NCBI GenBank assembly: GCA_965262935.1
Contig: OZ253572.1
Location: 6,846,445-6,910,444 of the forward strand
Length of the DNA stretch: 64,000 nucleotides
Reading direction: 5' to 3'
Origin: Spirochaetia bacterium
GTDB lineage: Bacteria; Spirochaetota; Spirochaetia; SZUA-6; Bin103
Shown here: in pieces, positions 1-54,513 of the stretch
Layout of the letters: the number at the start of each line of letters is the position of its first letter
Numbering within the stretch: the first letter of the stretch is position 1
Notes under the pieces: generated by a model
Database searches by the model: none
What the model was told of the DNA's origin: nothing
What the model saw: the letters and a program-made list of their open reading frames with translations, nothing else
Translations under genes and position numbers: made by a program

Positions 1-1188
1 CGTCGCGCATGCCGACCACGTCGATCTGCGTCGCGGGGCTCCAGTATTCGCCTACCTCGAAGCCGGCGGTGACTCCCTCCTGCGCGTAGATGAGCGGCAG
101 CGCCTCGCGACACAGCCGTTCGAAACAGTGCCCGAACCAGGCGTCGAGCGCCGGCGCGATGCGTGCGGAAAAAGCGCGCGCCGCGCCGCTGCCGCGGATC
201 ATGCTCACGTTCGGGAACACGAATCGGAACCAGAACCGCAGCAAGGGATCGTCCAACTCGAAGCGCACCTGCCGCGCGTTGGGCCGCCGGCCCTGCAGCG
301 GATACCGCCGTCGCAGGTAGCCCAGGTTCACGAGCTGCTGGAGATAGTAGTGCAGGCTGCGCTCCGGCAACCCGGTGGTGGCGGCAATTGCGGGCGCGGC
401 GCCGTGACCGGTCGCCAGGGCATGCAGAATCGCCTGATACGGCGCGATCTCGCGCAGCTCCTCGCGCAACAGAAAGGTGGGTTCATGAAACAGGGGCGCG
501 AATTCGGCGAGCAGATGGTCGCGGATATTGCTGTCGATGGAGCGGCTGTCGTCGAGGCAGAGCAGGTACTGCGGCAGACCGCCGACCAGAAAGTACGCCT
601 TGGTCTGATCCACCAGTGACCAGCGGGGATGGAACCGGGCTGCGTCCCGGTAGTCGAACGGCTGCAGATGGATCTGTGCCGTGCGCCGGCCGAACAGCGG
701 GCTCTTGTTGCCCAGCACGTCGCGCTCCATGAACCCGAGGTACGACCCGCACAACAGCAGCACCACGTTGCCGGCATCGCGCCACCACCGGTCCCAGCAC
801 TGCTGCAACTCCGACAGCAGGCCCGGTTCGGAGGCGGCGATCCACTGAAACTCGTCCAACGCGAGGACCAGTTTCGTTCCCGGGTTGGTGGCGGTCCACT
901 GCTCCACCACCGTACGCAGCGCCGGTCCCCAGCCGGCGGAACGCAGCTCTGCAAGCAGCGGCATGGCCAGGGCGCCGGCGGCCTCGGCCAGAAACTCGCG
1001 CACCTGCAGACCCGCCGACGATTGCTGCCCCAGATAGTAGACGCCGGGCTTGCCGGCCATGAATTTCAGGATCAGTTCGCTCTTGCCCACCCGGCGGCGG
1101 CCGTAGATCGGAATGAACTCCGAACGGGGCGACCGGTATGCGCCCTGCAACAGCCTCAGCTCCGTACCGCGGCCGACGAACTTCGTCA
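1..1188 (-). CDS. AAA+ ATPase of the DUF4143 / archaeal-ATPase family; C-terminal part runs off the window start
   Basis: Reverse-complement translation from a GTG at 1188..1186 reads VTKFVGRGTELRLLQGAYRSPRSEFIPIYGRRRVGKSELILKFMAGKPGVYYLGQQS, i.e. the FxGRxxEL ... YGRRRVGKS Walker A signature of this family. It is absent from the ORF track because no stop lies within the window. The + strand ORFs here are high-GC shadows. Confidence 0.7.
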
Positions 1189-1284
1189 CAGCGCTACTGT
1201 GCCCGCGCCTCCGAGGTTCGTCAAGTCGTGTTACGACAAGTCTTGCCTTGACAAGTTACGACTCGCAAAAGCGCGGACGGATGC

Positions 1285-2304
1285 TCAGCCGCCGCCGTAT
1301 TCGTCGGGGGTGATGGTGAGCCCGAGCACACGGGCGCGGCGCAGCACGGTGAGCGGCGTCGGCCGCCCCACCGCCTGGTCGTCGAGCAGCTTGTCGAGCT
1401 GGTCGATGGCAGAGATCGGCTGGTCGCCGAAGGCGATGATCACGTCGCCGCGCAGCAGCCCGGCGCGGCCGGCCGGCCCGCGGCCCTCGACCGATTCCAC
1501 CATCACCCCGCCGTCCACGGGTAGCTGCAGGTGGCGCACCACCTGCCGGGAGATGGCGACGTTGTGGCCGCCGATGCCGATGTAGCTGCGCCGCACGCGG
1601 CCCTCGCGCATCAGGTACATGCTCACGTACTTGGCCGTGTTGATGGCGGTGGCGAAGCAGATGCCCTGCGCCGGTACGATGGCCGCCGTGTTGACCCCCA
1701 CCACCTCGCCGTAGGAGGTGACCAGCGGGCCGCCCGAGTTGCCCGGGTTGAGCGGCGCATCGGTCTGGATCACATCGTTCACCTGGCGCCCGGCGTCGGA
1801 GCGCAGCGTACGGCCCAGGGCGCTCACCACGCCCGCGGTCACCGTGTACTGGAACCCGTACGGGTTGCCGATGGCAATCACCAGTTGGCCGACCCGGATC
1901 GCCGAGGAATCGCCGAGCGGCGCCGCCACCAGGTCGTCGCCGGAGATGCGCACCACGGCCAGGTCGGTCTCCGGGTCGGCGCCCACCAGGCGCGCCTCGA
2001 ACTGCCGGCCGTCGGCCAGGGTAGCGGTCACCGTCGCGGCATCGGCCACCGCGTGGCTGGTGGTGAGGATGAAGCCGTCCGGCGTGAAGATGAAGCCGGA
2101 GGCGGCGCCCTCCCCGGCGCCGTCCGCGGTGTCCAGATTGACCACCGCCGGCGACACCGCGTCGACCGCTTCGATGACGGCGCGCGAGTAGGGGTCGAGG
2201 CGCGGATCGAGCGCGCCGCCCGCGCCCACGCCCGCGCTCCCCTGATCGGGCGCAGCGTAACGCGAGCCGAGCGCATTCAGGAACGGTTCCGGGCCGTAGC
2301 GCAT
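1285..2304 (-). CDS. HtrA/DegP-family trypsin-like serine protease with C-terminal PDZ domain
   Basis: The 339-aa ORF has the catalytic-triad region with GNSGGPL and a PDZ-like C-terminus (GDVIIAFGDQPISAIDQL). Confidence 0.85.
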   Translation of the reverse strand: MRYGPEPFLNALGSRYAAPDQGSAGVGAGGALDPRLDPYSRAVIEAVDAVSPAVVNLDTADGAGEGAASGFIFTPDGFILTTSHAVADAATVTATLADGRQFEARLVGADPETDLAVVRISGDDLVAAPLGDSSAIRVGQLVIAIGNPYGFQYTVTAGVVSALGRTLRSDAGRQVNDVIQTDAPLNPGNSGGPLVTSYGEVVGVNTAAIVPAQGICFATAINTAKYVSMYLMREGRVRRSYIGIGGHNVAISRQVVRHLQLPVDGGVMVESVEGRGPAGRAGLLRGDVIIAFGDQPISAIDQLDKLLDDQAVGRPTPLTVLRRARVLGLTITPDEYGGG

Positions 2305-2517
2305 AACCTTTGGTCCACATTATAGATCATCCGACTAGGTCACGCGCCGGGACAGGTATCCGTGTATCCGTCCCCTCCCGCGGGCGCCACCACATCGGTC
2401 TCTCCTCCCTGAACACCCTCAGCCACTTGACTGCCAGCGCTTCTGCGGTCAGCCTACTGCAATCCTGCGGGCCGTTAACCCCCATCTGTGGTACGCCCCC
2501 CTATGGAAGGTGGTAAC

Positions 2518-4677
2518 ATGGCTATCGATATCGTTCGCGGCACCACAAACAAACCAGCTGCCACTCAAGCACTCGAACAACGCATGTCCGAACTTGGTAA
2601 TTGCTCAGGAGAGCTGTTCATCGGCTATCCCATTATCGTTTCTCCTACTGGTTCTTATCCTATCGATGCGCTCCTCGTATCGGTAGACCCGGGAATTGTC
2701 GTGTTTGATTTAGTCGAAGGCACCGATCCCGGAGACTATCAAGACCGACAGGACGAGTTGTACAACCAACTCGAAGCCCGTCTGAAAAAGCACTCGGATT
2801 TGGTAGACCGAAGAAAGCTCCGTATTCCAATTCATCCCATTTCATTCGCACCTGCAATTACCTCTGCCGACAGTTACGATGACAAAAATTACCCACTTAC
2901 GGACGCGAATACCCTTCTTTCTCGACTACCGAAGTGCGATCCCGCCGTGAATGCGAGCGTCTATCGAGCCGCGCTTTCTGTAATTGAGAGCACCTCAACA
3001 ATCCGCAAGAACCGATCTCGTAGAGCTGTGCAGCTAGACAACTCACGGGGTGCAAAACTGAAACGTCTTGAAGACTCTATCGCTACACTCGACTCAATAC
3101 AGAACAAAGCAGTCATTGAGACCGTTGAAGGAGTTCAACGTATTCGGGGGCTCGCTGGATCGGGGAAGACGATAGTCTTGGCATTGAAGGCAGCCTATCT
3201 TCATATCCAAAATCCGAACTGGCGCATCGCGGTGACTTTCAACACTCGTTCCTTGAAGGGCTTTTTCCGACGGCTCATCACCATCTTTTGCCTCGAGCAA
3301 AATGGAGAGGAACCGGACTGGGAGAGTCTGCGCATCGTAAACGCATGGGGTGCTCCCGGGAAACCGGAACGAGATGGGATGTATTATGAGTTCTGTCGTG
3401 CTAACAACGTCACATATTTCGATTTCCGTAGCGCGCGTTCGAGATTCGGAGCGGGCGATCCATTTGCTGGTGCATGCAAATTCGCAATAAGAGAAGCTGG
3501 TGTGCCAAAGCAGATTTATGACGTGATTCTCACGGATGAAGCGCAGGACCTTTCTCCTGCATTTTTGAAACTCTGCTATGAATCGCTCCGCACGCCGAAA
3601 CGATTAATATATGCATATGACGAACTGCAGAATCTCACTGGTGGTTCGCTTCCATCGCCAGAGGCTATCTTCGGCGACGATTCGGATGGGGCTTCTCGCG
3701 TTCGATTTAAATCCGAATCTAACGGCACAATGCGAAACGACATTATTCTCGAAAAATGCTACCGCAATTCCCGGCCGGTTTTGGTTGCCGCGCATGCGCT
3801 GGGCTTTGGAATCTACCGAAAACCGGCAGCCGGGAACAAGATTGGTCTTGTCCAGATGTTTGATCATCCCCAACTCTGGGAGGAGATCGGATATACGTCC
3901 CATACGGGGAAACTCAACCCTGGCGCCGAGGTTATTCTCTCGCGGTCCGAGACAAACAGCCCTCGTTTCTTGGAGTCACACTCTCCCAAAAAAGATCTGA
4001 TTTGCTTTAAGGTCTTCGACACTAAGGAGGATCAGACCGATTGGCTAGTGCAGCAAATAAACGACAATCTCACCAAGGACGAACTCCGGCATGACGATAT
4101 CATCGTGATCAATCCTGATCCACTCTCTACCCGCACCGAGGTCGGGCCCATTAGACGACGGCTACTAGAGGCTGGGATCGAGTGCCACGTCGCCGGGGTT
4201 GACACAGATCCAGACTACTTCAACCACGCAGAAAACCAATCGATCACTTTCACTGGCATCCACCGTGCAAAGGGAAATGAGGCTGGAATGGTCTACATCA
4301 TCAATGCACAGGATTGCCACGCGTCTGCGTACAATCTCGCCCGGCTTCGAAATCGACTGTTTACAGCTATAACGAGGAGCAAGGCCTGGATTAGGGTGCT
4401 TGGGATAGGAACGAACATGCAATCTCTTATCGACGAATACGAAATTCTAAAGTCATCCGATTTCGAGCTTCGATTCAGATATCCCACCGAAGACGAACGT
4501 GAGCAACTACGAATCGTCCACAAGGACATGTCTGAAAAGGCACTCGCACATCTTCGAAAAAGAGACAGAATTCTGTCAGATCTCGTGTCCGATCTGGAAG
4601 CGGGAGACGTAAACGTGCAGGACCTAAACAAGGATCTCGTTGAGAAACTACTACAACACTTCGAGAATATCGACTAG
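2518..4677 (+). CDS. SF1 helicase-like P-loop NTPase with an N-terminal NERD/nuclease-like domain (DUF2075 / Nhi-like architecture)
   Basis: Walker A GLAGSGKT, Walker B DEAQD, motif VI-like TFTGIHRAKGNEAGMVYII. The N-terminus FIGYPII..IDALLVSVDPGIVVFDL resembles a NERD/PD-(D/E)xK fold. A GGAAGGTGG Shine-Dalgarno sits before the ATG at 2518. GC is markedly lower than the flanks. Confidence 0.7.
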   Translation: MAIDIVRGTTNKPAATQALEQRMSELGNCSGELFIGYPIIVSPTGSYPIDALLVSVDPGIVVFDLVEGTDPGDYQDRQDELYNQLEARLKKHSDLVDRRKLRIPIHPISFAPAITSADSYDDKNYPLTDANTLLSRLPKCDPAVNASVYRAALSVIESTSTIRKNRSRRAVQLDNSRGAKLKRLEDSIATLDSIQNKAVIETVEGVQRIRGLAGSGKTIVLALKAAYLHIQNPNWRIAVTFNTRSLKGFFRRLITIFCLEQNGEEPDWESLRIVNAWGAPGKPERDGMYYEFCRANNVTYFDFRSARSRFGAGDPFAGACKFAIREAGVPKQIYDVILTDEAQDLSPAFLKLCYESLRTPKRLIYAYDELQNLTGGSLPSPEAIFGDDSDGASRVRFKSESNGTMRNDIILEKCYRNSRPVLVAAHALGFGIYRKPAAGNKIGLVQMFDHPQLWEEIGYTSHTGKLNPGAEVILSRSETNSPRFLESHSPKKDLICFKVFDTKEDQTDWLVQQINDNLTKDELRHDDIIVINPDPLSTRTEVGPIRRRLLEAGIECHVAGVDTDPDYFNHAENQSITFTGIHRAKGNEAGMVYIINAQDCHASAYNLARLRNRLFTAITRSKAWIRVLGIGTNMQSLIDEYEILKSSDFELRFRYPTEDEREQLRIVHKDMSEKALAHLRKRDRILSDLVSDLEAGDVNVQDLNKDLVEKLLQHFENID

Positions 4678-4681
4678 AGCT

Positions 4682-5350
4682 ATGCCGTTGTCAAACGACA
4701 CCTATATCGAGATCAACACACTCATTTCATATCTGGTCGAGAACGGTCTCGCTGATGCACAACAATACGCGATACTAAGGGATTCTGGAACGCGCACTAA
4801 GCATGTGTCGTTTTCACAATCTGGTTTCGTCAACATTGCACTTAAGAACGTGAGCTACAGCGATATATACGAGCAACTTGCGGAGTCTCGGGCATACAAC
4901 GCGAAAATGCTTGACGGCGCGTTGATCCAATTGATGTACTCTTTCGAGGCGGAAACAGCGGCAAGCCATCGACTAGCATTTTCCCCCGCTCCGCATCTTG
5001 AGGAATTCCAGAATAATCCGGATATATATCTGGATGATGAGATCTACGCTGACGTAGTGGATCGGAATATTGTTCCGTTCCCAGTACGTTTTGACTACAA
5101 TATTCAAACTCAGGGGGTCGATACAACGGCTCACCCGATATCACACCTGACACTTGGCCAGTACCGCAACTGTCGTATTCCCGTAACCGGTCCTGTTTCC
5201 CCATTCCGGTTTATCGAGTTTATCCTGAGGAATTTCTACCATACGGCATTCTCGCGGTATGCTGACGCGCTTCCTGCCGGCGACAACAGGTTTTCCGACA
5301 CGATCCGCCCGCATGAACGTCGGATTGTTCATGTAGTTGTTCCCGCGTGA
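4682..5350 (+). CDS. hypothetical protein (222 aa), likely cotranscribed with the upstream helicase
   Basis: The ATG lies 5 bp after the helicase stop on the same strand, in the same low-GC block. No recognisable motifs. Confidence 0.45.
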   Translation: MPLSNDTYIEINTLISYLVENGLADAQQYAILRDSGTRTKHVSFSQSGFVNIALKNVSYSDIYEQLAESRAYNAKMLDGALIQLMYSFEAETAASHRLAFSPAPHLEEFQNNPDIYLDDEIYADVVDRNIVPFPVRFDYNIQTQGVDTTAHPISHLTLGQYRNCRIPVTGPVSPFRFIEFILRNFYHTAFSRYADALPAGDNRFSDTIRPHERRIVHVVVPA

Positions 5351-6646
5351 GCGTCGGATGATGGATGGCGGAACGATTCTGTTCGGATGGATCGTCCTGT
5401 ATGCGCTGCAGCAGGGCGGCGAGACGCTCCTCACCCTGCTCAACCTGCGCCACGGCGCGCGCCACCCGGCGCCGCCGGCGGAGCTGGAGGGGGTGCTCGA
5501 TGCCGCCACCGTGGCCCGCATGCACGACTATCAGGCCGCCCGCAGCCGCCTCGGCCTGGTGCGCCGCGCGCTGCTCGTCGCCGTCACCGTGGCGGTGGTC
5601 GCCGGCGGCGCCTTGGGCGTGCTCGATCAGGCGCTCGCCGGCTGGCTGCAGGCGCTCGGCATCGCCTCGCCGCTACTCGCCGGGGCCGCGTTCGTGGTCG
5701 TGCTGACGGTCGCGAGCACGCTCCTGACGCTCGCCATCCGCCTGTACGGCCAGTTCGTGATCGAAGCGAAGTTCGGCTTCAACCGCATGACCGTGGCCAC
5801 CTTCTGCCTCGATCAACTGAAGAGCCTGCTGCTCACCCTGATCCTCGGCGTGCCGCTGCTGCTCGGCCTGTTCTGGTTCATGGCCGAGAGCGGCGAACGC
5901 TGGTGGATCTGGGCGTTCTGTTTCGTGGCCGCCTTCCAACTGCTGGTGAACTACCTGTACCAGCCGGTCATCGCGCCGCTGTTCAACAAGTTCCAGCCGC
6001 TGGCCGAGGGCACGCTGAAGCACCGCCTGGTGGCGCTGGCGGAACGGCTCGAGTTCCGGGTCAAGTCGGTGCTGGTGATGGACGGCAGCCGCCGTTCGCA
6101 GCACAGCAATGCCTACTTCGCCGGATTCGGCGGCGCCAAGCGCATCGTGCTGTTCGACACGCTGCTGAAAACGCTCGACGAGCCGCAGGTAGAGGCGGTG
6201 CTGGCGCACGAGATCGGCCACGAAAAACGCCGCCACGTCCTCAAGCACGTCGCCTGAGCCTGCTCCTCACCCTGCTCGGGCTGTGGCTGATGAGCGTGCT
6301 CCTGCACCAGCCGGCGCTGTTCGCGGCGTTCGGCTTTCACGCCGCCGGCGCCGGCCAACCGAGCTCGCACGCGGCGCTGATCATTCTCTCCCTGTTGTCG
6401 GGGCCCGCCACCTTCTTCCTGCAGCCGGCCGCCAATGGCTGGATCCGACGCCACGAGTACGAGGCCGACCGCTACGCGGCGCGCGCCACCGACGGCGCCG
6501 GCGCCCTGGCCGGCGCCCTGATCACGCTGAGCCGCGACAACCTGAGCAATCCCCATCCCCACCCCTGGTACAGCGCCTACCATTACACCCACCCCACCCT
6601 GGTGGAACGGCTGCGCGCGCTGCACCGCCCCGCTACCACCCGGTGA
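5337..6646 (+). pseudogene. M48-family (Ste24/HtpX-like) zinc metallopeptidase, interrupted by a frameshift near 6250
   Basis: Frame 0 (5337..6257) gives TM helices and HEIGHEKRRHVLKHVA then a stop. Frame +1 continues as LSLLLTLLGLWLMSVLL ... EYEADRYAA ... HPHPWYSAYHYTHPTLVERL, the C-terminal third of Ste24-like peptidases. Combined length of about 436 aa is normal for the family. Confidence 0.7.
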
Positions 6647-6779: not shown

Positions 6780-6853
<74 letters not shown>

Positions 6854-6981: not shown

Positions 6982-7683
6982 ATGGCAGTGGTAACCATTT
7001 CCCGGCAGCTCGGCAGCGGCGCCCGCGCCATCGGCATCCGGGCGGCGGAACTGCTCGGCTACGACGTGGTCGACAAGGCGCTGATCACCGAGGTGGCGCG
7101 CGAGGCGCACGTCGATCCCGAAGAGGTAGCCGAGATCGACGAGGTGGAAGAACCCGGCGTGCGCGGCTTTCTGACCCGCTGGTTCACCATGGAGAGCGTG
7201 GCCAACGTACCGTCGGCGTCATCGCTGGTCGATCTGTCCTACCACGGTCCGGGCGGCATCTTCGTGCCGCCGGCCGACGCCGACATCGGCGAGGAGGTGC
7301 ACTTCCTCGACCGCCAGCAGTACCACCGGCTCGTGCAACAGACCATTCACCGGCTCGGCGAGCGCGGGCGGGTGATCATCGTGGGCCGCGGCGGCATGGT
7401 GCTGCTGCGCGACGCGCCGGACACGCTGCGCATACGCGTCGTCGCCTCGGAGGAGAGCCGTGCCGAGCGCTACGCGAGCGAAGAGGGCATCACCTTTCGC
7501 GAGGCCCTGCACCAGGTGCGCATCAGCGACCGGCGCCGGGCCGCGTTCGTGCATCGCAACTACCACGTCGACTGGGACGACGCCGCGCTCTATCACCTGG
7601 TGATCAACTCGGAGAGCACCTCCACCGCCATGGCGGCCTCCGCCATCGCCTCCGCCGTCGGCGCCATGAAGCCGGTCACCTGA
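6982..7683 (+). CDS. cytidylate kinase-like family protein (AAA_33 / Cytidylate_kin2)
   Basis: N-terminal MAVVTISRQLGSGARAIG P-loop, typical of cytidylate-kinase-like domain proteins. The 233-aa length fits. Confidence 0.7.
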   Translation: MAVVTISRQLGSGARAIGIRAAELLGYDVVDKALITEVAREAHVDPEEVAEIDEVEEPGVRGFLTRWFTMESVANVPSASSLVDLSYHGPGGIFVPPADADIGEEVHFLDRQQYHRLVQQTIHRLGERGRVIIVGRGGMVLLRDAPDTLRIRVVASEESRAERYASEEGITFREALHQVRISDRRRAAFVHRNYHVDWDDAALYHLVINSESTSTAMAASAIASAVGAMKPVT

Positions 7684-7758
7684 GCAATTCATGCAATCCC
7701 CGCGCCGCTGCCCCGGCGGCGGCTGTCGGGCTGTCGGGCTGTCGGGTAGCATGTTGAC

Positions 7759-9141
7759 ATGGTGACCTGCGAGCGCACGACGATCCTTCATCACCCACTG
7801 GAGCGCGCGTTCTCCTGGCACGAACGCCCGGCGGCGGTCGAGCGTTCCTTTCCGCCGCGGCAACGCATCGAGACCGTGGCACGCACCGGGACCATTCGCG
7901 ACGGCGACCGCATCACGTTTAGCGCTCGAGTGGGGCCGTTCACGATGCGCTGGACGGTGCAGCACGAAGGCTACCGGCCTCCCGCAGAGTTCGGAGACCG
8001 TCAAGTCGACGGACCCTATCGCTCGATGAACCACCGTCATTTCTTTCGCGCGACCGGGACGGCAAGCTGCGAAATGACCGACCGCGTCCAATGTGAGCCG
8101 GGTAGAATGTTGACACTTCTGGGCCGCAACAGGCTCCAGAGTACCGTGGAACGCAGCCTGGAGTTCCACCATGAGCGGGTGCGCCGCGACCTGGACCGCC
8201 ATGCAACTGGCCCGCCGCAACCCATTCGGGTGCTGATCTCCGGTGCCTCCGGTCTGATCGGCGGCGCGCTGACGGCGTTTCTGGACAGCGGCGGCCATGA
8301 GGTGGTGCGGCTGGTTCGACGTGCTCCGCGGTCCGCCGCGGAGATCGCCTGGGATCCGGCCGCCGGGCAGGTCGACGCGGATGCGCTGGAAGGGTTCGAT
8401 GCAGTGATCCACCTGGCCGGCGAGAACATCGGCGCCGGGCGCTGGACCGCGGCGCGCCGGCAGCGCATCCGGGACAGCCGCGTGGCGTCGACCGCGCTGC
8501 TGTGCGCTGCGCTCGCCGGACTTCGCCGGCCACCCGCGGTGCTGGTGTCGGCGTCGGCGATCGGGTACTACGGCGACGCGGCCGGCTCGGCGGACGAGGC
8601 GGCGCCGGCCGGCACCGGGTTCCTGGCCGAGGTGACGGCCGCCTGGGAGCAGGCCGCCGAGCCGGCGCGGGCAGCGGGCATCCGCGTGGCGCACGCCCGG
8701 CTGGGTCCGGTGCTGAGCCCCGCGGCGGGCATGCTGAAACGGCTGCTGCCGGTGTTCCAGGCCGGAGCCGGCGGCGTGGTCGGCAGCGGCCGGCAGGCGA
8801 TAAGCTGGATCGGGCTCGATGACGCGGTCGGCGCCCTGCATTTTCTGATCAGCAACGGGCAGGCGCACGACGCCTTCAACGTGGTAGCCCCCGAAGCGGC
8901 CACCAACCGCGAGTTCACGCACGCGCTGGCGGCCGTGCTGCGCCGGCCGGCTGTCGCGCGCGTGCCCGGCATCGCCATCCGGCTGCTGCTCGGCGAGATG
9001 GGCGACCAGCTCATCCTCAAGGGCAAGGCCGTGCTCCCGGCACGGCTCACGGAGCTGGGCTTCCGCTGGCTGGAGCCGACCCTGGACGGCGCGCTGCGCT
9101 GGGAGCTGGGCATGCCCGCGGGCGAGAGCCGTCCCGGATAG
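7759..9141 (+). CDS. SRPBCC-domain fused to TIGR01777 (YfcH-like) NAD-dependent epimerase/dehydratase family protein
   Basis: Rossmann motif ISGASGLIGGAL, DUF1731-like C-terminus (VLPARLTELGFRW), and an N-terminal ~150-aa SRPBCC-like segment. Confidence 0.75.
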   Translation: MVTCERTTILHHPLERAFSWHERPAAVERSFPPRQRIETVARTGTIRDGDRITFSARVGPFTMRWTVQHEGYRPPAEFGDRQVDGPYRSMNHRHFFRATGTASCEMTDRVQCEPGRMLTLLGRNRLQSTVERSLEFHHERVRRDLDRHATGPPQPIRVLISGASGLIGGALTAFLDSGGHEVVRLVRRAPRSAAEIAWDPAAGQVDADALEGFDAVIHLAGENIGAGRWTAARRQRIRDSRVASTALLCAALAGLRRPPAVLVSASAIGYYGDAAGSADEAAPAGTGFLAEVTAAWEQAAEPARAAGIRVAHARLGPVLSPAAGMLKRLLPVFQAGAGGVVGSGRQAISWIGLDDAVGALHFLISNGQAHDAFNVVAPEAATNREFTHALAAVLRRPAVARVPGIAIRLLLGEMGDQLILKGKAVLPARLTELGFRWLEPTLDGALRWELGMPAGESRPG

Positions 9142-33975: not shown

Positions 33976-34039
33976 TGCCTGTTCGACTGCACCATTATTG
34001 GGCCTTTCCGCGTGCGGTTAGCCGCGCGCGGCGGGTTTG

Positions 34040-34290
34040 AGCTGGTCTATGTGGTCTTTTGTAAATTCTATAATGGTTTACTCGGTACCCCAATATCCGG
34101 TTATTGCTTCCGCAACCCCTTGATGGGCAGCCGATCATCGTTGATTCGCTTCCGTCTGGCGCCGTGACGTGCTCGGAGCCGGTCATCATGACCGTCGACG
34201 GCACCGAACGCAGCTCCGTCACCGCCGCGCCCACCTCCCTGACCTTCGCGCACACGACTCGGGACGCCGTCAAGACCGTAGGCCTGAGCG
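34040..34290. repeat. repeat element X, copy 2
   Basis: Homologous to 20330..20580; a degraded HNH N-terminal remnant (SCLFDCTII) spans its upstream junction. Confidence 0.7.
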
Positions 34291-34581
34291 TTACGACGGC
34301 GACGCTGAGTCAGAAGGCATCGCCCCAGTGCGGTTCCGGTCACGATTATTCCGAAGGTCCCGTTTACTTAGCGTTTCGTGCGGCTCTTCTGCTTTCCGCA
34401 GCCTCCGAATTCCGCGCTCATCAGCGCCCCATGAGTGTTTAATCAGCCCGCCGTCGCCGCGCCGCGCGTCGACACCCTGCGACGCCTCGAAAGCCGCCTA
34501 CAACCCGTCGGCCGTACCACGCTACGCGGGACCGACAAGCTGCGGCGTCGTATGTCTCCAGCTCACCAGTTCCGCTTGACG

Positions 34582-35607
34582 CTACGAATTCGTCACATCC
34601 TCGTCCGCAAGGTCCAGGGGAATACGGACTCGGTGAAACTCTGGAGCGTTGAGACTCCCCGAGGCAAATACCATTCCTCTCGCCGTGCCACCCGGTTTCC
34701 AATCCGGGTAGTCAAGTAGGACGTTCGATAACGTCACCTCTGTTGGACAATTCGTCTTCGGATCAAGAAAACCAGTCCCTTTGAGCTTCAACTCCCCGGT
34801 TGTACGCCCTGCGCCTGTACTGTCCCTACATGACTGAATGAGCCGAAAGTCAAAATACACTTGATCAGCATTATCCGTAGCAAAGCAATGAACTTCCCCT
34901 CTTACGCTACCGACGGTTTCGAATCCATTTTGCAGCAACAACTCTGTCACTGCATCACCTTCTTGGTCTCTAATCGACTCGAATATCTGTACCATAGAGA
35001 GTTTCATAGGCACACGTATTTCGCTCAGAAGATCATTCAGATCCTTCTTCAAGAGAACTCGATTGACGTCCGAGCACTCTTTCATCTCGCTGACCAACTC
35101 AGAAGCGAGCCCCTTTTCGTAGCTTTTCTGTTCGTAGAAGTCCGTATCTTGCGTAACAAAAAACACATCTCCTTCTTGGAGCAACTCGAGACAATGCGCC
35201 CAAATTACTCCGTCGCGGAACTCCTCCTTGGTCTTTGATGGCGGGATTCTCCTGATTATCTTTATCATCGAAGACCGAGCAACATCTACATTAAACTCAA
35301 CCTCACGGACTGGGACATCAAAATTTGACACGATGCGAGAGACCACTCCTCGGATGTCTTCTTCGAGCGGCAGCGTAAGACGCTGCAACTTGTGAAACAC
35401 CTGCAGCAGCTGTTTGTGGCTGTCTGCTGCTTGTTTTCTTAGCTTCAACAAGTGACCCGTCAGCCGCTCCTCTATTTCGAGTCTTACGATTTCCGGGACT
35501 ACGACAGTCGCCCCTTGTCTCAGGGCGAAGTGACGAACGGCGGCACCACTCCGTGATTGGAGACCCAATTGGGAAAACCACACATTTGAATCGAATAGTA
35601 TGAACAT
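34582..35607 (-). CDS. PIN-like domain protein (DUF4935-type) with a ~220-aa C-terminal extension
   Basis: N-terminal MFILFDSNVWFSQLG, with the first acidic residue of the PIN fold in the FDSN motif, then conserved acidic positions. Low GC. Confidence 0.55.
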   Translation of the reverse strand: MFILFDSNVWFSQLGLQSRSGAAVRHFALRQGATVVVPEIVRLEIEERLTGHLLKLRKQAADSHKQLLQVFHKLQRLTLPLEEDIRGVVSRIVSNFDVPVREVEFNVDVARSSMIKIIRRIPPSKTKEEFRDGVIWAHCLELLQEGDVFFVTQDTDFYEQKSYEKGLASELVSEMKECSDVNRVLLKKDLNDLLSEIRVPMKLSMVQIFESIRDQEGDAVTELLLQNGFETVGSVRGEVHCFATDNADQVYFDFRLIQSCRDSTGAGRTTGELKLKGTGFLDPKTNCPTEVTLSNVLLDYPDWKPGGTARGMVFASGSLNAPEFHRVRIPLDLADEDVTNS

Positions 35608-36532
35608 ATGAGTTTCACGGGCGCGACTAAGAGAGTTGTTCTCCGCCAAATCGGAGGGGGCACTTGCCATGGATAGGCAGTGTAGCAGTCAACGCGTAGG
35701 CGCGCTACCCTTTGGGGGGCGCGGGGGCGCGGATTCGGAAACGATGGAAACAAGCTGCCCGAGCGTAGCTTCGGAGTCGTCAGATCAGCTTCCCAATGCA
35801 GTCTCGCCGCGACGCTCCGGTAGCCGTTGCGAAGTTGTTCCACCGATCGCTACATTCGTGACGCGACACCGCGGCGCTCGTCGGTCTCCAACTCCGTCAA
35901 ACGCTGCAGCGTGACCCGTCCCACCTGACGCAAGACGTCGTCGTTGGCATGCTTCTCAGCTTGTTCCGGTCTACAATCCGGCGCCGACAATCCGGCGCCG
36001 TGGTGGACATTCAACGGACGATATGAGTATTGCTCCTATCATGGCATTAGGAATCGCAGCGACGGGTGGCCGGGGACGTTCCGGCACCTGTCCGGCTTGG
36101 AGGCCGGGGGTCACGCGCCGTCGGCTGGCGACGCGGGGACGTCGACCGATGGTTGGAGGCTCTGCCGAAGGCGTAGGCCGCCGTCGTGGGCGTGCCGGGA
36201 CCGGAGGGAAACCCCATCCGGCAACGCGGCAACCACCGAGTCGGCACGACAGTTATTCGCGGAAACAACCCAAAACCGCCAACAGGAAACTAGTGGGGAT
36301 CAAGCGATCACTGCCGGGTACTCATAACCGTTGGAGCGGAAGGCATGCTTAAGCTGTACTGGGGTGACGCCAAAGCCTGAGCGGGTTGGCGGCGGAGGGC
36401 TTCGAAGGAGAGGGCCAGCGGGCCGCCGCTGCGGGGGGAGCCGGGGGTGCCGGCTCAAGGACGGGGAGCCCGAGAAGCCGCGGTCCCGGAACTGCCACGA
36501 GCCGAGGCTTAGTCGACAGGGTGTTTTCATAC

Positions 36533-39607: not shown

Positions 39608-42574
39608 ATGGCGAAGCGCCGGACGCGCAAGAAACCGATCGAAGTAACGTCCATTACCCACGACGAGGCGTCGCGCCGGAACATCCCCACGGCCGAGTAC
39701 CGGTCGGTGATGGAAAAGGGCGATCAGAGCCCCATCCAGGTGGCCTACCAGCGCCGCAACCGCGACCTGGATCCGCAGCTCGTGTGGCGCGGCAAGGACG
39801 AGCAGGACTGGTCCGACCTCGTGGTGCAGGCGCCGCCGCTGTTCATCCAGGAGAAGGTGCACCCCAAGGTGCTGATCGACGACCTCCTGCGGCGCAGCAA
39901 GGAGGGGCAACAAGCAGCGCACGCCCAACTCGACCTGTTCGCCGACTTCAACGGCCTGCCGGACGACAACGCCCGCACCGAGTTCTACCGACACGACGCC
40001 AACTGGTCCAACCGCATGATCCTCGGCGACAGCCTGCAGGTAATGGCCTCCTTGGCCGAGCGTGAAGGGCTGCGCGGCAAGGTGCAGTGCATCTACCTCG
40101 ACCCGCCCTACGGCATCAAGTTCAACTCCAACTTCCAGTGGTCCACCACCAGCCGCGACGTGAAGGACGGCAAGGCAGAGCACATCACTCGCGAACCCGA
40201 GCAAGTCAAGGCCTTCCGCGACACTTGGCGTGACGGCATCCACTCCTATCTGACGTATCTACGTGATCGGCTGACGGTAGCACGTGATTTGCTTACCGAA
40301 AGCGGTAGTATATTTGTCCAAATCGGCGACGAGAATGTACATCGGGTAAGGGCACTGTTAGATGAAGTCATGGGACAGGATAACTTCGTGGCACAAATTG
40401 CTGCTACCAAGACCGCCGGACAGACAGATGCTCTCTTGCCGTCTTTGTTTGATACACTCCTGTGGTATAAGAGGAGTTCAGAGCGCTGCAAATTCCGACG
40501 TCTCTTTCGGGACAAGGGTGTTGGACAAGATGAAATTGGACAATACTACTTCGTTCAACTGAGTGATGGTACACGGAGCCGGCTGACTGAACGAGAGACA
40601 CTTTCCGGTCATGGTCTTGAACAGGGATCTCCGTTTCGCAGTTCCGATATCTCTAGCAACAAACCCTATAGCCTTGGTCGTCTACCATTTGAGTTCGAAG
40701 GCAGGGTATTTCTTCCCCCTGCAGGTCGTTACTGGACGCACAGTCCGGACGGTCGAGAACGGTTAAGGAAAGCCGACAGGTTGATCGCGATGGGAAAGAA
40801 TATTCGGTTCGTCGGTTTTCTGCAAGATGATCCCGTTTCAACGATTAGCAACCAATGGACTGACACTGGGATCAGCGGCTTCGCAGCCGACAAGGTTTAT
40901 GTCGTCCAGACCAGCCCGAAGTTAATTGAGCGGTGCATCCTGATGGCCACCGATCCTGGCGACCTTGTCTTGGACCCAACTTGTGGCTCAGGAAGCACGG
41001 CCTATGTCGCCGAGCAATGGGGACGGCGCTGGATTACCATCGATACCTCCCGCGTGGCTTTGGCTCTGGCCCGCTCCCGCGTCATGGGTGCACGTTATCC
41101 ATACTATCTGCTCACGGACAGCACGGCGGGCCGGCAGAAGGAAGCAGATATTACGCAGACGATCACGATGAAAGGGCTTGCGGGCCGCGACATCAGGCAG
41201 GGCTTCGTATACGAGCGTGCCACCCACGTCACTCCGAGGTTAATCGCCAACAACGCCGAGATCGACGTGATCTGGGAGCGGTGGCAGGAGACGCTGGAGC
41301 GGCTTCGGGCGGAACTGAACGGCGCGCTTGGTCGCGCGTGGGAGGAGTGGGAGGTCCCGCGAGAGGCTGGCGAGCCGTGGCCCGAGCCGGCGACGGCAGC
41401 GTGGAAACGGTTGCAGTCGGCCCAGTCCGATGCGCAGAGAGCCGACGCACTGTTGGCTTTGAACCACGCTCTGCGCCGCGACTACACCCTTGACGATGTC
41501 CCCGGCCAGCCGCGCGACCCGTGGGACGCGGTCCCCCGAACCGACCTGCACCGCCGCTGGTGGGAGGCGCGCATCGCGCGGCAGAAGGAGATCGATGCCT
41601 CCATCGCCGCCAAGGCGGACTTCGAGTACCTGTACGACAAGCCCTACGAGGATCGGGGCACCGTCCGCGTCGCCGGCCCGTTCACGGTGGAGAGCCTGGC
41701 GCCGCACCGCACGCTCGGCGTCGACGAGAATGACGAACTGATCGACCATCTCGCCGAGACCAAGACCGGCTACGACGGGCAGCAGGAATTCGCGACCATG
41801 ATCCTGGAGCACCTGAACACGTCGGGCGTCCAGCAGGCGCACCGGGAGGACCGCATCTCCTTCACCGCGCTCACCCCGTGGCCTGGTGACCTGATCTGCG
41901 CCGAGGGGCGCTACGTCGAAGGTGACGTGGACACCGGGACCGAACGCCGTGCCGGGATCTTCATCGGCCCGGAGTTCGGCACCGTTGCCCGCCCCGACCT
42001 GGTGGCCGCCGCCCTCGAAGCCGCCGACGCCGACTTCGACGTGCTGATCGCCTGCGCGTTCAGCTACGAGGCACACGCCACCGAGTTCAGCAAACTCGGC
42101 CGCATCCCGATTCTCAAGGCGCGTATGAACGCCGACCTGCACATGGCCGGCGACCTGAAGAACACCGGCAAGGGCAACCTGTTCGTGATCTTCGGCGAGC
42201 CGGACATCGAGATCATCCCGGTCCAGGACAACGCCACTCAGGCGTGCCAGATCCAGGTCAAGGTCAACGGCGTGGACGTGTTCCACCCCAACACCGGCGA
42301 AATCCGCAGCGACGGCCCGGACGGCATCGCCTGCTGGTTCGTCGACACCGACTACAACGAGGAGAGTTTCTTCGTCCGCCACGCCTACTTCCTCGGCGCC
42401 AACGACCCCTACAAGGCGCTCAAGACGACCCTCAAGACGGAGATCCACCGCGACGCCTGGGAAACCCTGCACAGCGACACCTCCCGCCCCTTCGACCGCC
42501 CCGCCTCCGGCCGCATCGCCGTCAAGGTCATCAACCACCTCGGCGACGAAGTAATGAAAGTCTTCCGCGTGTGA
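39608..42574 (+). CDS. mod: type III R-M N6-adenine DNA methyltransferase (Mod) with long C-terminal extension
   Basis: IYLDPPYGI (motif IV DPPY) and LVLDPTCGSGSTAYVA (motif I). Its ATG follows the res stop by 0 nt (TAGATG). The low-GC middle segment at 40250..41100 is the probable target-recognition domain. Confidence 0.9.
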   Translation: MAKRRTRKKPIEVTSITHDEASRRNIPTAEYRSVMEKGDQSPIQVAYQRRNRDLDPQLVWRGKDEQDWSDLVVQAPPLFIQEKVHPKVLIDDLLRRSKEGQQAAHAQLDLFADFNGLPDDNARTEFYRHDANWSNRMILGDSLQVMASLAEREGLRGKVQCIYLDPPYGIKFNSNFQWSTTSRDVKDGKAEHITREPEQVKAFRDTWRDGIHSYLTYLRDRLTVARDLLTESGSIFVQIGDENVHRVRALLDEVMGQDNFVAQIAATKTAGQTDALLPSLFDTLLWYKRSSERCKFRRLFRDKGVGQDEIGQYYFVQLSDGTRSRLTERETLSGHGLEQGSPFRSSDISSNKPYSLGRLPFEFEGRVFLPPAGRYWTHSPDGRERLRKADRLIAMGKNIRFVGFLQDDPVSTISNQWTDTGISGFAADKVYVVQTSPKLIERCILMATDPGDLVLDPTCGSGSTAYVAEQWGRRWITIDTSRVALALARSRVMGARYPYYLLTDSTAGRQKEADITQTITMKGLAGRDIRQGFVYERATHVTPRLIANNAEIDVIWERWQETLERLRAELNGALGRAWEEWEVPREAGEPWPEPATAAWKRLQSAQSDAQRADALLALNHALRRDYTLDDVPGQPRDPWDAVPRTDLHRRWWEARIARQKEIDASIAAKADFEYLYDKPYEDRGTVRVAGPFTVESLAPHRTLGVDENDELIDHLAETKTGYDGQQEFATMILEHLNTSGVQQAHREDRISFTALTPWPGDLICAEGRYVEGDVDTGTERRAGIFIGPEFGTVARPDLVAAALEAADADFDVLIACAFSYEAHATEFSKLGRIPILKARMNADLHMAGDLKNTGKGNLFVIFGEPDIEIIPVQDNATQACQIQVKVNGVDVFHPNTGEIRSDGPDGIACWFVDTDYNEESFFVRHAYFLGANDPYKALKTTLKTEIHRDAWETLHSDTSRPFDRPASGRIAVKVINHLGDEVMKVFRV

Positions 42575-42827
42575 CGACACGGATGTCGTCACAGTCAGCG
42601 CTTGCCGGATCGCTACAAACAAGGCGCACCTCTGACGGACCGAGTCCGGCGCAATCTTGTCTACGCGTAGTGCCGGGATTCCCAATCCCGCTCGGAAGTG
42701 CAAGGTGTGGCGACTCGGGGCGTCTCATGCCCGTGCCAGCGGTGCAGGTGCGTTCCGATACGGTCGAGCTGACGGGTCAGCGCACATTGTTGCAATTGTC
42801 TGCCACTTAATCGATCTCAGAAAGGCT

Positions 42828-43109
42828 ATGTCCAGAATCAGAGTGTTGTTCGATCTAAGTACCGTATCCAAGATGCATGGTCTAGGACGGCTTTCTCAGT
42901 TGGTTCCAATTGGCGGAAACGTAATCGCATATGCATCGACAGCTTTTCTTGAGGAACTTTCCGGTCTGCGTAGAAAGCATCCACGAATGTATGAAGAGAT
43001 CCTTGATTGGTATCGGTCTTGTACGTTCGGACGTTTGATCAAGCCGTGGAGGCAACTCATATACAGTGAGGGATGCGCTGAAATCAGTAAATCGCTGCCT
43101 GATAGATGA
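42828..43109 (+). CDS. hypothetical small protein
   Basis: Low-GC ORF starting MSRIRVLFDLSTVSKMHGLGR. Weak support. Confidence 0.25.
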   Translation: MSRIRVLFDLSTVSKMHGLGRLSQLVPIGGNVIAYASTAFLEELSGLRRKHPRMYEEILDWYRSCTFGRLIKPWRQLIYSEGCAEISKSLPDR

Positions 43110-43341
43110 GCGATACATAGCTGTTATTCATGGTCACGATGGAGAAGAGAGGGCTCGCGAGTACGCTGAATTCAAGAATCGTAGAGATGGCTTACGGTAT
43201 TCAGCCGTCGAGGGCGTCAACGAATGGCGGGTCGAGACGATCAACCATAAATCAAACGACGAGTACCGAGAAGTCACTTTCTACGGAATGTATGACGAGG
43301 ACAGAGCCCGCGAGTACGTTGCATTCAAGAATGCAACATAG
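43066..43341 (+). CDS. hypothetical small protein with internal duplication (EERAREYAEFKN / EDRAREYVAFKN)
   Basis: Low-GC 91-aa ORF; the internal repeat is seen in the translation. Confidence 0.3.
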   Translation: MRDALKSVNRCLIDERYIAVIHGHDGEERAREYAEFKNRRDGLRYSAVEGVNEWRVETINHKSNDEYREVTFYGMYDEDRAREYVAFKNAT

Positions 43342-43347
43342 TGGCAC

Positions 43348-44013
43348 CTATCGCCCGCCCCAACATTGCTGTGAGATTTGCGCCAAGTCATGTCGCAGGG
43401 TTTGCGGTGTGTGACGGTGATGTAGCTCTCTTAGTGTCTTTCCGTGGCAACACTTCACTAAGCGTCCGCTTCCGCACGGGCACAATCTATGTCCGTCATA
43501 TCCGTACTCGCTAAGGAAGCGGATTACTTCTACTGCCTCCTTCTCACATCTCAGGTCGAAGGCGTCCATGTAGAATTGTACTATCCCGGCAGAACCATGT
43601 TTTTGTTCCCCGAAAGGATGAACATCATGTTTCTCCCAATAGCGATATCCGTAAAGGAAGGGGACCAAAAGACGGTTTACGAACCCCAAAAGAGTCGGCT
43701 CGTTGTGAAATATGATGCGCGCCTTAATGGGAACGCAGAGGCAGAGCGTTCTGTCTGGATTTACGTGTTCGTACTCTTTAATTGAACCGCCGGTTTCCCT
43801 GGCTATGGGCAAGTCGTCTGGATACGATTCCGGTATGCACAATTCAACGTCGAAACAGGTCACAATGGACTCGAGTCCACCATAGTGTGCCCTAAACGGC
43901 AAAGCACCAGACAGGGCGGTTCCACCAACTTTCCTTTGTACTCTGGTCAGCTCTCGGTGGGTTTGCTGCAAGTCTCCGATCTGGCGCGACAATTCCTCGC
44001 TCAAACCCTCCAC
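43348..44013 (-). CDS. E2-like ubiquitin-conjugating-fold protein (short Cap2-like) with C-terminal SEC-C zinc motif
   Basis: EHVNPDRTLCLCVP matches the E2 HPN...C(L) catalytic signature. C-terminal CPCGSGRLVKCCHGK is a SEC-C motif. Overlaps the CD-NTase gene by 13 nt. Confidence 0.65.
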   Translation of the reverse strand: MEGLSEELSRQIGDLQQTHRELTRVQRKVGGTALSGALPFRAHYGGLESIVTCFDVELCIPESYPDDLPIARETGGSIKEYEHVNPDRTLCLCVPIKARIIFHNEPTLLGFVNRLLVPFLYGYRYWEKHDVHPFGEQKHGSAGIVQFYMDAFDLRCEKEAVEVIRFLSEYGYDGHRLCPCGSGRLVKCCHGKTLRELHHRHTPQTLRHDLAQISQQCWGGR

Positions 44014-45185: not shown

Positions 45186-45197
45186 AGTGTTCTCCGT

Positions 45198-46163: not shown

Positions 46164-46417
46164 GGATCGATGTGCTCCACGCTACCGAAGTTCCGTCGCG
46201 GGGATGCCGGTGCGTCCAGTAGCTCTCTTTTTTGTGGTGGTGAGAAGCTACGTATTCCCAGGATGGCGTGTCAACCCCGAATCTTTGAGCGGCCGACCAC
46301 CATAGCAACGGTGTCGGTGGTCATACCGAGCGGTCGTAAGGTATACGCGTCCGAGAGGACCATGACAGGCCGATTGGGTTGAGACGATTCCCGTAATATG
46401 CTACAGTATCAGCATAT

Positions 46418-46790
46418 ATGGCATGGAAGCGAACGCAGCACAAAGCGCCAGGGAAGTACTACCGCAACGGGATCACGCTGATCGACCTGATGCGGATGTT
46501 CCCGGACGACGCAACCGCCGAGCAGTGGTTCGTCGAAGGCCGCTGGCCTGCCGGCGTGCGCTGTCCGTACTGCCACAGCGACCGAGCCACCCGCTGCACG
46601 CACAAGACCATGCCGTTCCGCTGCCCGAGCTGCCGCACGTTCTTTTCGGTCAAGACGGACACGGTAATACACGCCTCCAGGGTCGGCTACCAGAAATGGG
46701 CCATCGCCATCTACCTGATGACCACGCGGATCAAGGGCATCTCAAGCATGAACATGCACCGCGAGATCGGCGTCACCCAAGAAGACGGCG
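46418..46790 (+). pseudogene. IS1595-family (ISXO2-like) transposase N-terminal fragment
   Basis: The zinc-ribbon region CPYCHS...CPSCRTFFSVKTDTVIHASRVGYQKWAIAIYLMTTRIKGISSMNMHREIGVTQ matches the family. The DDE domain is absent because the frame degenerates after ~125 aa. Confidence 0.65.
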
Positions 46791-54488: not shown

Positions 54489-54513
54489 GCGCCTATGCGC
54501 TCACTAACATCGT

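Follow-up and report, generated by a model that had tools for sequence, protein, structure and literature searches.

The window analyzed here is a stretch of 64,000 nucleotides from the genome of a Spirochaetia bacterium (contig OZ253572.1), and it contains a low-GC islet of about 3.02 kb (positions ~2327 to 5348, plus strand) that consists of a leader, a helicase gene and a gene encoding a DUF2290 protein. The left neighbor, on the minus strand, is the gene for an HtrA-like S1C serine protease (htrA, 1285 to 2304; Trypsin_2 and PDZ in the Pfam annotation of its orthologues). The right neighbor, on the plus strand, encodes an M48 (Ste24-like) peptidase (5358 to 6646; Peptidase_M48) and begins 7 nt past the stop codon of the DUF2290 gene. 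The orthologues of this peptidase are intact proteins of 429–434 aa; in the window the gene is frameshifted, with a 1-nt indel relative to the syntenic genome L001. An earlier reading made from the sequence only had described a sharp drop in GC across 2.5–5.3 kb, and the measured values bear this out: GC is 0.46–0.53 over positions 2400 to 5400 versus 0.65–0.74 on either side, and 0.50 for the islet as a whole versus ~0.69 in the flanks. The third codon positions differ even more, with a GC3 of 0.524 in the helicase gene and 0.529 in the DUF2290 gene versus 0.932 in htrA and 0.921 in the M48 gene. Both open reading frames also lie where they had been placed, on the plus strand at 2518–4677 (719 aa) and 4682–5350 (222 aa). 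The second one starts, as had been noted, 5 nt past the TAG of the helicase gene (4675–4677), and the spacer of only 4 nt makes translational coupling of the two genes likely. The window contains no rRNA gene.

The islet was inserted between htrA and the M48 gene, in their divergent promoter region, as the sequence-only reading had proposed for the two flanking genes. Relatives with an empty site document this insertion: in L084/L085 and in L087, whose htrA genes are 88–89% identical to that of the window, htrA and the M48 gene are divergent direct neighbors, 113 and 39 nt apart, respectively. The alignment of the window to L084 and L087 is lost at position ~2326 and resumes at ~5349, and the TATAAT -10 box of htrA (the reverse complement of 2319–2326) is kept at the junction. 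The leader 5' of the helicase gene (2327 to 2517, plus strand, GC 0.63) contains the Shine-Dalgarno-like sequence GGAAGGTGG at 2505–2513, before the helicase ATG, and a consensus scan found no sigma-70-like promoter in it. Outside the syntenic relatives L001 and L002, with which it is shared at 91% identity, the leader has no counterpart at other helicase loci; because it is found only in these syntenic relatives, we reject the idea that the leader was transferred together with the two genes.

The islet contains no mobility gene, and no satellite, prophage or ICE genes were found around it. An imperfect inverted repeat has its left arm on the left insertion junction (2326–2354) and its right arm across the end of the DUF2290 gene, including its final codons and stop, and the ATG of the M48 gene (5338–5362), with 23 matches in 29 columns between the left arm and the reverse complement of the right arm. 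In a narrow test its score was reached by one of 2000 shuffles; when wide flanks were included, the z-score was only 1.8. A repeat of about 29 nt at both junctions might be the marker of a non-autonomous mobile cassette. However, terminal inverted repeats as a general signature of such cassettes are rejected by the wide-flank value and by the other loci: none of the 73 has a comparable junction repeat, and z reaches 4 or more in 0 of 74 loci. We regard the repeat as a local curiosity of uncertain significance.

The 719-aa protein is assigned to the SF1 (UvrD-like) helicases by its matches to the PADLOC model PDLC03002 "Helicase" (E = 6.8e-299, 991 bits; residues 3–716 on model positions 2–705 of 707) and to Pfam UvrD_C_2 (5.5e-9; residues 579–627). 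Its homologues, more than 5,401 in number, are about 60% identical between phyla and begin at the same methionine as the open reading frame in the window. The SF1 motifs that had been recognized from the sequence are present and conserved in the 83 homologues compared, 100% in every case: Walker A GLAGSGKT (residues 211–218, positions 3148–3171) and Walker B or motif II DEAQD (residues 340–344, positions 3535–3549) are invariant, as are R611 and R620 of motif VI, RNRLFTAITRSK, which lies within the UvrD_C_2 match (residues 611–622, positions 4348–4383). No solved-structure relative of the full-length helicase or DUF2290 protein was found by sequence; the full-length helicase profile reached only PcrA among the solved structures, across the Walker A region. 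The best NCBIfam relative is the STM2767 family DEAD/DEAH box helicase (NF053713; 101 bits, residues 179–372). The window helicase is related to this family but does not belong to it, because the match is partial and its score is far below the cut-off of 550 bits.

The N-terminus of the helicase had been described as NERD/PD-(D/E)xK-like, and the two halves of this description fared differently. Pfam NERD (PF08378) found no match at E <= 10 in 31 isolated N-terminal domains and none at E <= 1 in the full protein, whereas a PD-(D/E)xK (restriction-endonuclease-like) fold, defined by an alpha-beta-beta-beta-alpha-beta core, for residues ~1–115 (positions 2518–2862, plus strand) is supported by an AlphaFold model (pLDDT 81) and Foldseek. 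The top matches of the model in the PDB are all PD-(D/E)xK nucleases (the R2 restriction-like endonuclease (RLE), NucS/EndoMS, Bax1, Can2/Card1, SLFN14 and SduA), with probabilities up to 0.99 and E-values of 2e-3 to 0.1, which are marginal but uniform in theme. The conserved residues of the domain include D50 (83/83 homologues), D64 (80/83) and E67 (82/83), together with K12 (82/83), Q78 (83/83) and D79 (81/83). The sequence D64-L-V-E67 lacks the canonical (D/E)xK lysine, and most homologues have isoleucine at position 66; the near-invariant K12 or R77 could act as a substitute. Sequence profiles (Pfam, PDB) detected no nuclease family for this domain. Given the marginal Foldseek E-values, the missing profile match and the missing lysine, the domain could instead be a non-catalytic DNA-binding module.

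The partner had been said to have no recognizable domain. This is not the case: the 222-aa protein is a clear member of Pfam DUF2290 (PF10053; E = 4.9e-47, 160 bits, cut-off 25), and it matches the PADLOC model PDLC02999 over residues 4–221 of 222 (5e-89). Searching 1.84 billion representatives with a profile retrieved 1,439 relatives; among the matches listed, essentially all are standalone proteins of ~220 aa, with no domain fusions. D78, G79, Y86, R136, D138, H155 and R165 are invariant in 75 homologues. Beyond its own family, DUF2290 has no detectable relative in fold or sequence: Foldseek searches of the PDB and BFVD with its structure model (pLDDT 80) returned nothing at E <= 0.001, with TM-scores of at most ~0.25, and neither the DUF2290 profile nor the profile of the helicase N-terminal domain found a solved structure. 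A weak chorismate-lyase/UTRA theme in the Foldseek output is not credible, and the idea that DUF2290 arose from the N-terminal domain of the helicase by duplication and divergence was rejected (hhalign probability 0.2%). In the model, a beta-beta-alpha arrangement around H151-H155, C164-R165 and R183-N184 would fit a His-Me-finger-like metal site. With no relative outside the family, any role for DUF2290 is speculation, and each specific role that one might assign to it is doubtful at best.

Both proteins cover their PADLOC models end to end, and we conclude from these sequence matches, with high confidence, that the islet pair is the Helicase + DUF2290 anti-phage system (Rst_HelicaseDUF2290 in DefenseFinder, helicase-DUF2290 in PADLOC). 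This agrees with the proposal of a helicase-based defense module with a tightly linked accessory gene, for which a co-occurrence survey had been suggested. In this survey the partner was conserved beside homologous helicases: a DUF2290 gene lies directly 3' of the helicase gene on the same strand in 73 of the 78 assessable genomes, and in five cases the helicase occurs alone. Neither of the two outcomes that had been named as refuting the proposal was observed, as the helicase N-terminus resembles nucleases at the level of fold and the partner gene is conserved. The assessable loci come from Spirochaetia, Latescibacterota, Chloroflexota, Proteobacteria, Planctomycetota, Cyanobacteria, Actinomycetota, Bacillota and Saccharibacteria. 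The system first came to light in P4 satellites and prophage hotspots and is active against T7 (Rousset et al. 2022, Cell Host Microbe, PMC9122126); Rst_HelicaseDUF2290 and the window pair agree in both proteins, in gene order and in orientation. The system of Rousset et al. resides in an enterobacterial P4 satellite, whereas the host of the window is an uncultured bacterium with ~69% GC; the two also differ in sequence, the window helicase sharing ~59% identity with its enterobacterial counterpart in L053. The window pair is thus an ordinary copy of a system already described and experimentally validated, which the sequence-only reading had not recognized. For other copies, no protection was seen with a Lactococcus homologue against the phages that were tried, and deletion of the system in P. 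aeruginosa MPAO1 had phage-specific effects only. In P. aeruginosa the presence of the system correlates positively with prophage number.

Among other defense systems, Gabija (GajA, an OLD/TOPRIM nuclease, and GajB, a UvrD-like helicase) is likewise a two-gene operon with an SF1 UvrD-like helicase. However, the GajB matches of the window helicase do not exceed 32 bits and cover Walker A or motif V-VI stretches only, and the PADLOC scan revealed no GajA-like ATPase/TOPRIM partner, as the DUF2290 protein matches no GajA model. Nhi (nuclease-helicase immunity) and the PADLOC candidate C3a187 (NERD+UvrD) likewise place a nuclease-like domain in front of an SF1 helicase, at the N-terminus, and the core of the window helicase is related to C3a187 (57 bits, residues 187–376). 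The architecture had been compared to Nhi-like and DUF2075 proteins, but this comparison does not hold at the sequence level: the PADLOC Nhi match has 18 bits (1.9e-4) over just 43 residues (332–374), and Pfam DUF2075 gives no match at E <= 1. Furthermore, Nhi is a single gene with a DUF2075/Viral_helicase1 core, whereas the window type nearly always has a second gene.

The empty sites in close relatives and the low GC3 of the islet support its horizontal acquisition. Compared with its flanks, the module in other genomes is lower by more than 5 GC points in 44 of 61 cases and higher in none. The same pair occurs in L003 in an unrelated genomic context, and other Helicase + DUF2290 copies, too, are small cargo that sits at variable places in the genome. 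Its distribution is patchy, with the pair present in 3 of 5,426 E. coli genomes. The system is also widespread: of 185,579 species representatives, more than 513 carry it, and its proteins keep ~60% identity between phyla. In E. coli it is cargo of an integrative element that carries an integrase, AlpA, RepA, Trb genes and toxin-antitoxin modules, and a recombinase adjoins the pair. A phage-borne origin was rejected: tblastn found no match in 50,697 phage records, and IMG/VR holds 10 loci among 2.9 million viral contigs. Compared with L001, dN/dS is 0.20 for the helicase gene and 0.15 for the DUF2290 gene, values that indicate that both genes are under purifying selection; after its insertion the islet was passed on vertically in its chromosomal site under this selection. 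The best explanation overall is a horizontally acquired copy of Helicase + DUF2290, to which we assign a probability of roughly 0.8. Points against it are the missing protection by the Lactococcus homologue, the phage-specific effects in P. aeruginosa MPAO1, the five solo helicases and the leader in which no consensus promoter was detected.

The mechanism of this system is given as "N/A" in the literature. A nuclease-helicase that degrades phage DNA is our tentative scheme, and we rate its chances slightly below even; a Hachiman-like nuclease-helicase mechanism has also been hypothesized for this system by others. The helicase and DUF2290 genes would be co-transcribed and translationally coupled, and their products would work together. 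The 719-aa protein would be an active SF1 ATPase and translocase that loads on a feature of the invading DNA, e.g., the free ends or the replication intermediates that a linear T7-like genome presents, and the N-terminal PD-(D/E)xK-fold domain (D50/D64/E67 with K12 and Q78) would cleave the DNA while the motor tracks. DUF2290, a compact orphan fold of ~220 aa with an invariant Asp/His/Cys/Arg cluster, would be an obligate partner that either gates the helicase-nuclease or is a second effector. It is rather improbable that the mode of action is new among defense systems, a reading that combines three elements: a non-canonical PD-(D/E)xK nuclease (D...DxxE, its lysine coming from elsewhere) that is fused to an SF1 motor, a DUF2290 protein that would control or cooperate with this motor-borne nuclease, and a new fold for DUF2290, which would bind metal through His/Asp/Cys residues and might be a cryptic beta-beta-alpha-Me nuclease. 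If true, Helicase + DUF2290 would be a two-nuclease helicase machine.

An alternative explanation is a toxin-antitoxin-like or abortive-infection module, in which the helicase restrains DUF2290 as a toxic effector, e.g., a metal-dependent nuclease acting through D78/D138/H151/H155/C164, and frees it on sensing phage DNA or DNA damage, as HamB does with HamA in Hachiman, so that the infected cell dies. This alternative would fit the strict gene order and tight coupling of the two genes and the density of invariant polar, metal-ligand-type residues in DUF2290. It also draws on a preprint that likens this system to Hachiman, and the mechanism of Hachiman has been published (PMC12278908). Hachiman likewise has two genes that provide a helicase and a nuclease-fold module, and it is proposed in the literature as the mechanistic template. 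However, its HamB is an SF2 helicase and its HamA a separate DUF1837 PD-(D/E)xK protein, whereas the window pair has an SF1 helicase with the PD-(D/E)xK-like domain fused N-terminally and a partner with an unrelated orphan fold; the PADLOC scan of both proteins gave no match to the Hachiman (Ham) models at E <= 1. Moreover, no nuclease or toxin fold was detected in DUF2290, the nuclease-like domain of the helicase itself makes a separate effector less necessary, and solo helicases persist without DUF2290. We consider an abortive-infection module somewhat unlikely.

A second alternative places the benefit with the mobile elements that harbor the pair, for which it might, e.g., keep out rival plasmids, ICEs or satellites or process the DNA of the element; defense against phages would then not be its primary function, and the islet would be a stranded remnant of such an element. 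The location of the E. coli pair inside an integrative element, the discovery of the system in P4 satellites and prophage hotspots, and the correlation with prophage number in P. aeruginosa all point in this direction. However, the islet has no mobility gene and has remained under purifying selection (dN/dS 0.15–0.20) after vertical inheritance, a member of the family was shown to act against T7, and the pair is rare in viral contigs and absent from the phage records. This makes a primary role in element biology very unlikely. A third alternative, a UvrD/PcrA/HelD-type paralogue that serves in housekeeping or repair together with an accessory factor and has no part in immunity, is effectively refuted by the empty sites in close relatives and the foreign composition. 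The weak partial matches to PcrA, helicase IV, HelR and RecD2 over Walker A and motif V-VI that speak for it score far under the family cut-offs (e.g., PcrA 22 bits versus 911). The end-to-end matches to defense-system models and the patchy spread noted for E. coli also count against it.

For genome annotation, the horizontally acquired Helicase + DUF2290 copy is routine, as PADLOC or DefenseFinder would call the pair automatically. As a natural example it is clean: the insertion is minimal, comprises two genes within sharply defined borders and can be compared with matching empty sites, all in an uncultured lineage of high GC. The minimal insertion, the empty sites and the purifying selection together show that the pair alone is the selectable unit. 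At the level of folds, the evidence provides residues to mutate in tractable homologues, in the conserved PD-(D/E)xK-like domain and in the invariant Asp/His/Cys/Arg cluster of DUF2290.

The low-GC islet between the S1C protease gene htrA (1285-2304, minus strand) and the M48 peptidase gene contains two plus-strand genes, both located where the sequence-only reading had placed them. ORF A (2518-4677) encodes a helicase of 719 amino acids, is preceded by GGAAGGTGG at 2505-2513 ahead of its ATG, and starts at the same methionine as its homologues. ORF B (4682-5350; 222 amino acids) follows the TAG stop of ORF A after a 4-nt spacer, its ATG 5 nt past the last base of the stop. The second protein had been described as lacking a recognizable domain, but it matches Pfam DUF2290 (PF10053; E = 4.9e-47). 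In PADLOC-DB both proteins are matched end to end, ORF A by the model 'Helicase' (PDLC03002; E = 6.8e-299, residues 3-716 of 719) and ORF B by 'DUF2290' (PDLC02999; E = 5e-89, residues 4-221 of 222). Three defining features of the Helicase+DUF2290 system, a helicase model match, a DUF2290 model match, and adjacency with co-orientation, are present; judged by its sequence, the islet is a copy of this already described anti-phage system, which gives the suspected defence module with an accessory gene a known identity. The pair specifically inhibits phage T7 and recurs in prophage hotspots of Vibrio and Bacillus (Rousset et al. 2022, PMC9122126). DefenseFinder names it 'Rst Helicase+DUF2290'. Later papers report only its detection or deletion: deletion in P. 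aeruginosa MPAO1 has phage-specific effects, and a lactococcal copy failed to protect against the phages tried. Reviews enter its mechanism as not tested, and our full-text literature search found no mechanistic or structural study of the system.

The drop in GC noted at first sight is evident in the sliding profile (0.46-0.53 over about 2400-5400 versus 0.65-0.74 on either side) and at third codon positions (0.524 in ORF A and 0.529 in ORF B versus 0.932 in the upstream protease gene and 0.921 in the downstream peptidase gene). The proposed insertion between htrA and the M48 gene is confirmed by relatives with an empty site: on contigs L084/L085 and L087, whose protease orthologues are 88-89% identical, the protease and M48 genes sit side by side in divergent orientation with only 113 and 39 nt between them, and neither islet gene is found there. 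In the nucleotide alignment the left junction falls at about 2326, directly after ATTATAGA, whose complement is a TATAAT -10 box for htrA, and the right one at about 5349, in the stop codon of DUF2290, with the M48 ATG next at 5358. The insert therefore measures about 3.02 kb, and it entered the AT-rich promoter region common to htrA and M48. Because the M48 gene begins 7 nt behind the DUF2290 stop, it is probably transcribed by read-through from the islet. The closest helicase relatives (94% identity) are found on the ENA metagenome contigs L001 and L002, in the same gene order of S1C protease, helicase, DUF2290 and M48 peptidase. The helicase gene is 95% and the DUF2290 gene 91% identical to the copies on these contigs, compared with 95-96% in the flanks, so the insertion is older than these strains and its inheritance has been vertical from then on. 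The dN/dS values relative to L001 (0.20 for the helicase, 0.15 for DUF2290) indicate purifying selection on both genes.

The window's islet contains no mobility gene. A perfect 10-nt inverted repeat (2326-2335 and 5353-5362) is part of a longer, imperfect one of about 29 nt that coincides exactly with both junctions; it is not significant with wider flanks and has no counterpart at 73 other loci. An 18-nt direct repeat (16/18 matching; 5308-5325 and 5342-5359, 34 nt apart) lies across the right junction, with one copy within the conserved C-terminal coding end of DUF2290 and the other covering its stop codon and reaching into the M48 start codon. This repeat could represent microhomology at the right insertion junction.

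Homologues are numerous in the protein collection (more than 5,401 for the helicase, 1,510 for DUF2290), with typical identities to the window proteins of about 60% across very different phyla, and with one genome scanned per species, at least 513 species have the helicase. For the neighbourhood survey 80 helicase loci were kept, from Spirochaetia, Latescibacterota, Chloroflexota, Proteobacteria, Planctomycetota, Cyanobacteria, Actinomycetota, Bacillota and Saccharibacteria. The co-occurrence that the sequence-only reading had proposed to survey is pronounced: DUF2290 lies directly downstream on the same strand in 73 loci, and two loci stop too early to judge. In the remaining five (L062, L064, L067, L077 and L082; helicase at 6001 to about 8160) no DUF2290 gene occurs within 6 kb of the full-length helicase. 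Three of these share one Latescibacterota context, with a DnaJ-domain gene downstream on the opposite strand, which suggests a single loss of DUF2290. In L067 the genes downstream of the helicase resemble a C5-methyltransferase and a Vsr-like endonuclease. By its composition the module usually looks foreign: of 61 genomes, 44 have it more than 5 GC points below the flanking DNA, and none has it above. In E. coli the pair occurs in 3 of 5,426 complete genomes, as cargo of an integrative element that also has a recombinase and toxin-antitoxins along with integrase, AlpA, RepA and Trb genes. A search of 50,697 phage records found no copy, and copies in IMG/VR are few (10 loci).

The helicase core belongs to SF1 (UvrD-like; Pfam UvrD_C_2, 5.5e-9, with the UvrD N-terminal family slightly below the cut-off), and the only solved relative found by profile is PcrA, matched over the Walker A region. 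The motifs recognized earlier, GLAGSGKT (residues 211-218), DEAQD (340-344) and motif VI (611-622), are all there and invariant in 83 homologues. Conservation is 100% in all ATPase and helicase motifs, so an active motor is to be expected. The N-terminal region (residues 1-192, modelled from a 31-sequence alignment; pLDDT 81) had been called NERD/PD-(D/E)xK-like; the nuclease-like fold stands, and the NERD label does not. Every informative Foldseek match in the PDB is a PD-(D/E)xK nuclease (R2 retrotransposon restriction-like endonuclease, NucS/EndoMS, Bax1, Can2/Card1, SLFN14, Shedu SduA, AdnAB), with probabilities up to 0.99, yet E-values of only 2e-3 to 0.1. Near-invariant residues occupy the expected positions: D50 (83/83 homologues) at a strand start, D64 (80/83) and E67 (82/83) where the following strand ends, R77 (80/83), Q78 (83/83) and D79 (81/83) on the helix after it, and K12 (82/83). 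The canonical (D/E)xK lysine is missing (D64-L-V-E67; position 66 is isoleucine in most homologues). Taken together, the fold is nuclease-like, an active site is plausible and catalysis is putative. No sequence profile, NERD included, recognizes this domain; tests for membership in NERD and DUF2075 (Pfam) and in Nhi, Gabija and Hachiman (PADLOC) were negative, and the Nhi-like and DUF2075 labels fall as well.

DUF2290 was modelled well (pLDDT 80, pTM 0.83), but fold searches of the PDB and BFVD gave nothing significant, and neither sequence nor profile searches of the PDB produced a match; in these searches the protein has no relative outside its own family. A relationship to the helicase N-terminal domain was ruled out by comparing the two, and no fusions occur among the matches listed of 1,439 family representatives. 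Its polar cluster is invariant in 75 of 75 sequences at Y59, D78, G79, Y86, R136, D138, H155 and R165, and H151, C164 and E212 are kept in 74. Some of these residues fall in a predicted strand-strand-helix unit (154-158, 165-168, 174-185), whose topology and conservation would be compatible with a putative His-Me-finger-type metal site.

In its logic the system resembles Nhi, Hachiman and Gabija. The mechanism we prefer, with a probability of roughly 0.45, is that the helicase would translocate on invading DNA driven by ATP, the fused nuclease-like N-terminal domain would cut this DNA, and DUF2290 would be indispensable, either as a regulator or as a second effector. The chief alternative is an arrangement in the style of Hachiman, with DUF2290 as a toxic effector that is released; Hachiman-like action has been put forward in one preprint, as a hypothesis only, and we consider this arrangement unlikely.

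The M48 gene (5358-6646, plus strand) is split between two reading frames, 5358-6257 and a second to 6646, and differs by a single 1-nt indel from the intact 429-amino-acid orthologue in L001; either the gene is truly a pseudogene, or the long-read assembly is in error here. Just downstream, a tRNA-Met (CAT) gene (6780-6853, plus strand), the sole tRNA gene and sole Rfam match in the 64-kb window, lies away from the islet junction and was therefore not the insertion target. Beyond htrA, a gene for an ATPase_2 (PF01637)/DUF234 protein (2-1192, minus strand) runs off the window start; its product shares 95% identity with that of L001, and the gene is absent from the empty-site relatives L084, L086 and L087, so that strain-variable genes lie on both sides of htrA. 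In L086 (htrA 81% identical) the htrA-brxC/M48 interval holds a different insert, an AAA_14/DUF4143 ATPase gene (7360-8607, minus strand), so variable genes appear to integrate repeatedly in the htrA/M48 neighbourhood.

A second defence and mobile island, unrelated to the islet, occupies a low-GC patch at 39608-47272. It encodes an N6_N4 DNA methylase protein of 988 amino acids (39608-42574, plus strand), a CBASS pair of SMODS/DncV-like cyclase (44001-45185) and patatin phospholipase (45198-46163), both on the minus strand, and an IS1595-type zinc-ribbon transposase (46418-47272, plus strand). More low-GC patches at 34000-36000, 40000-41000, 47000-50000, 54000-57000 and 62000-63000 (0.47-0.58 versus about 0.65-0.70), where several ORFs (43348-44013, minus; 47177-48154, minus; 48928-49545, plus) lack a Pfam match, suggest additional horizontally acquired segments.
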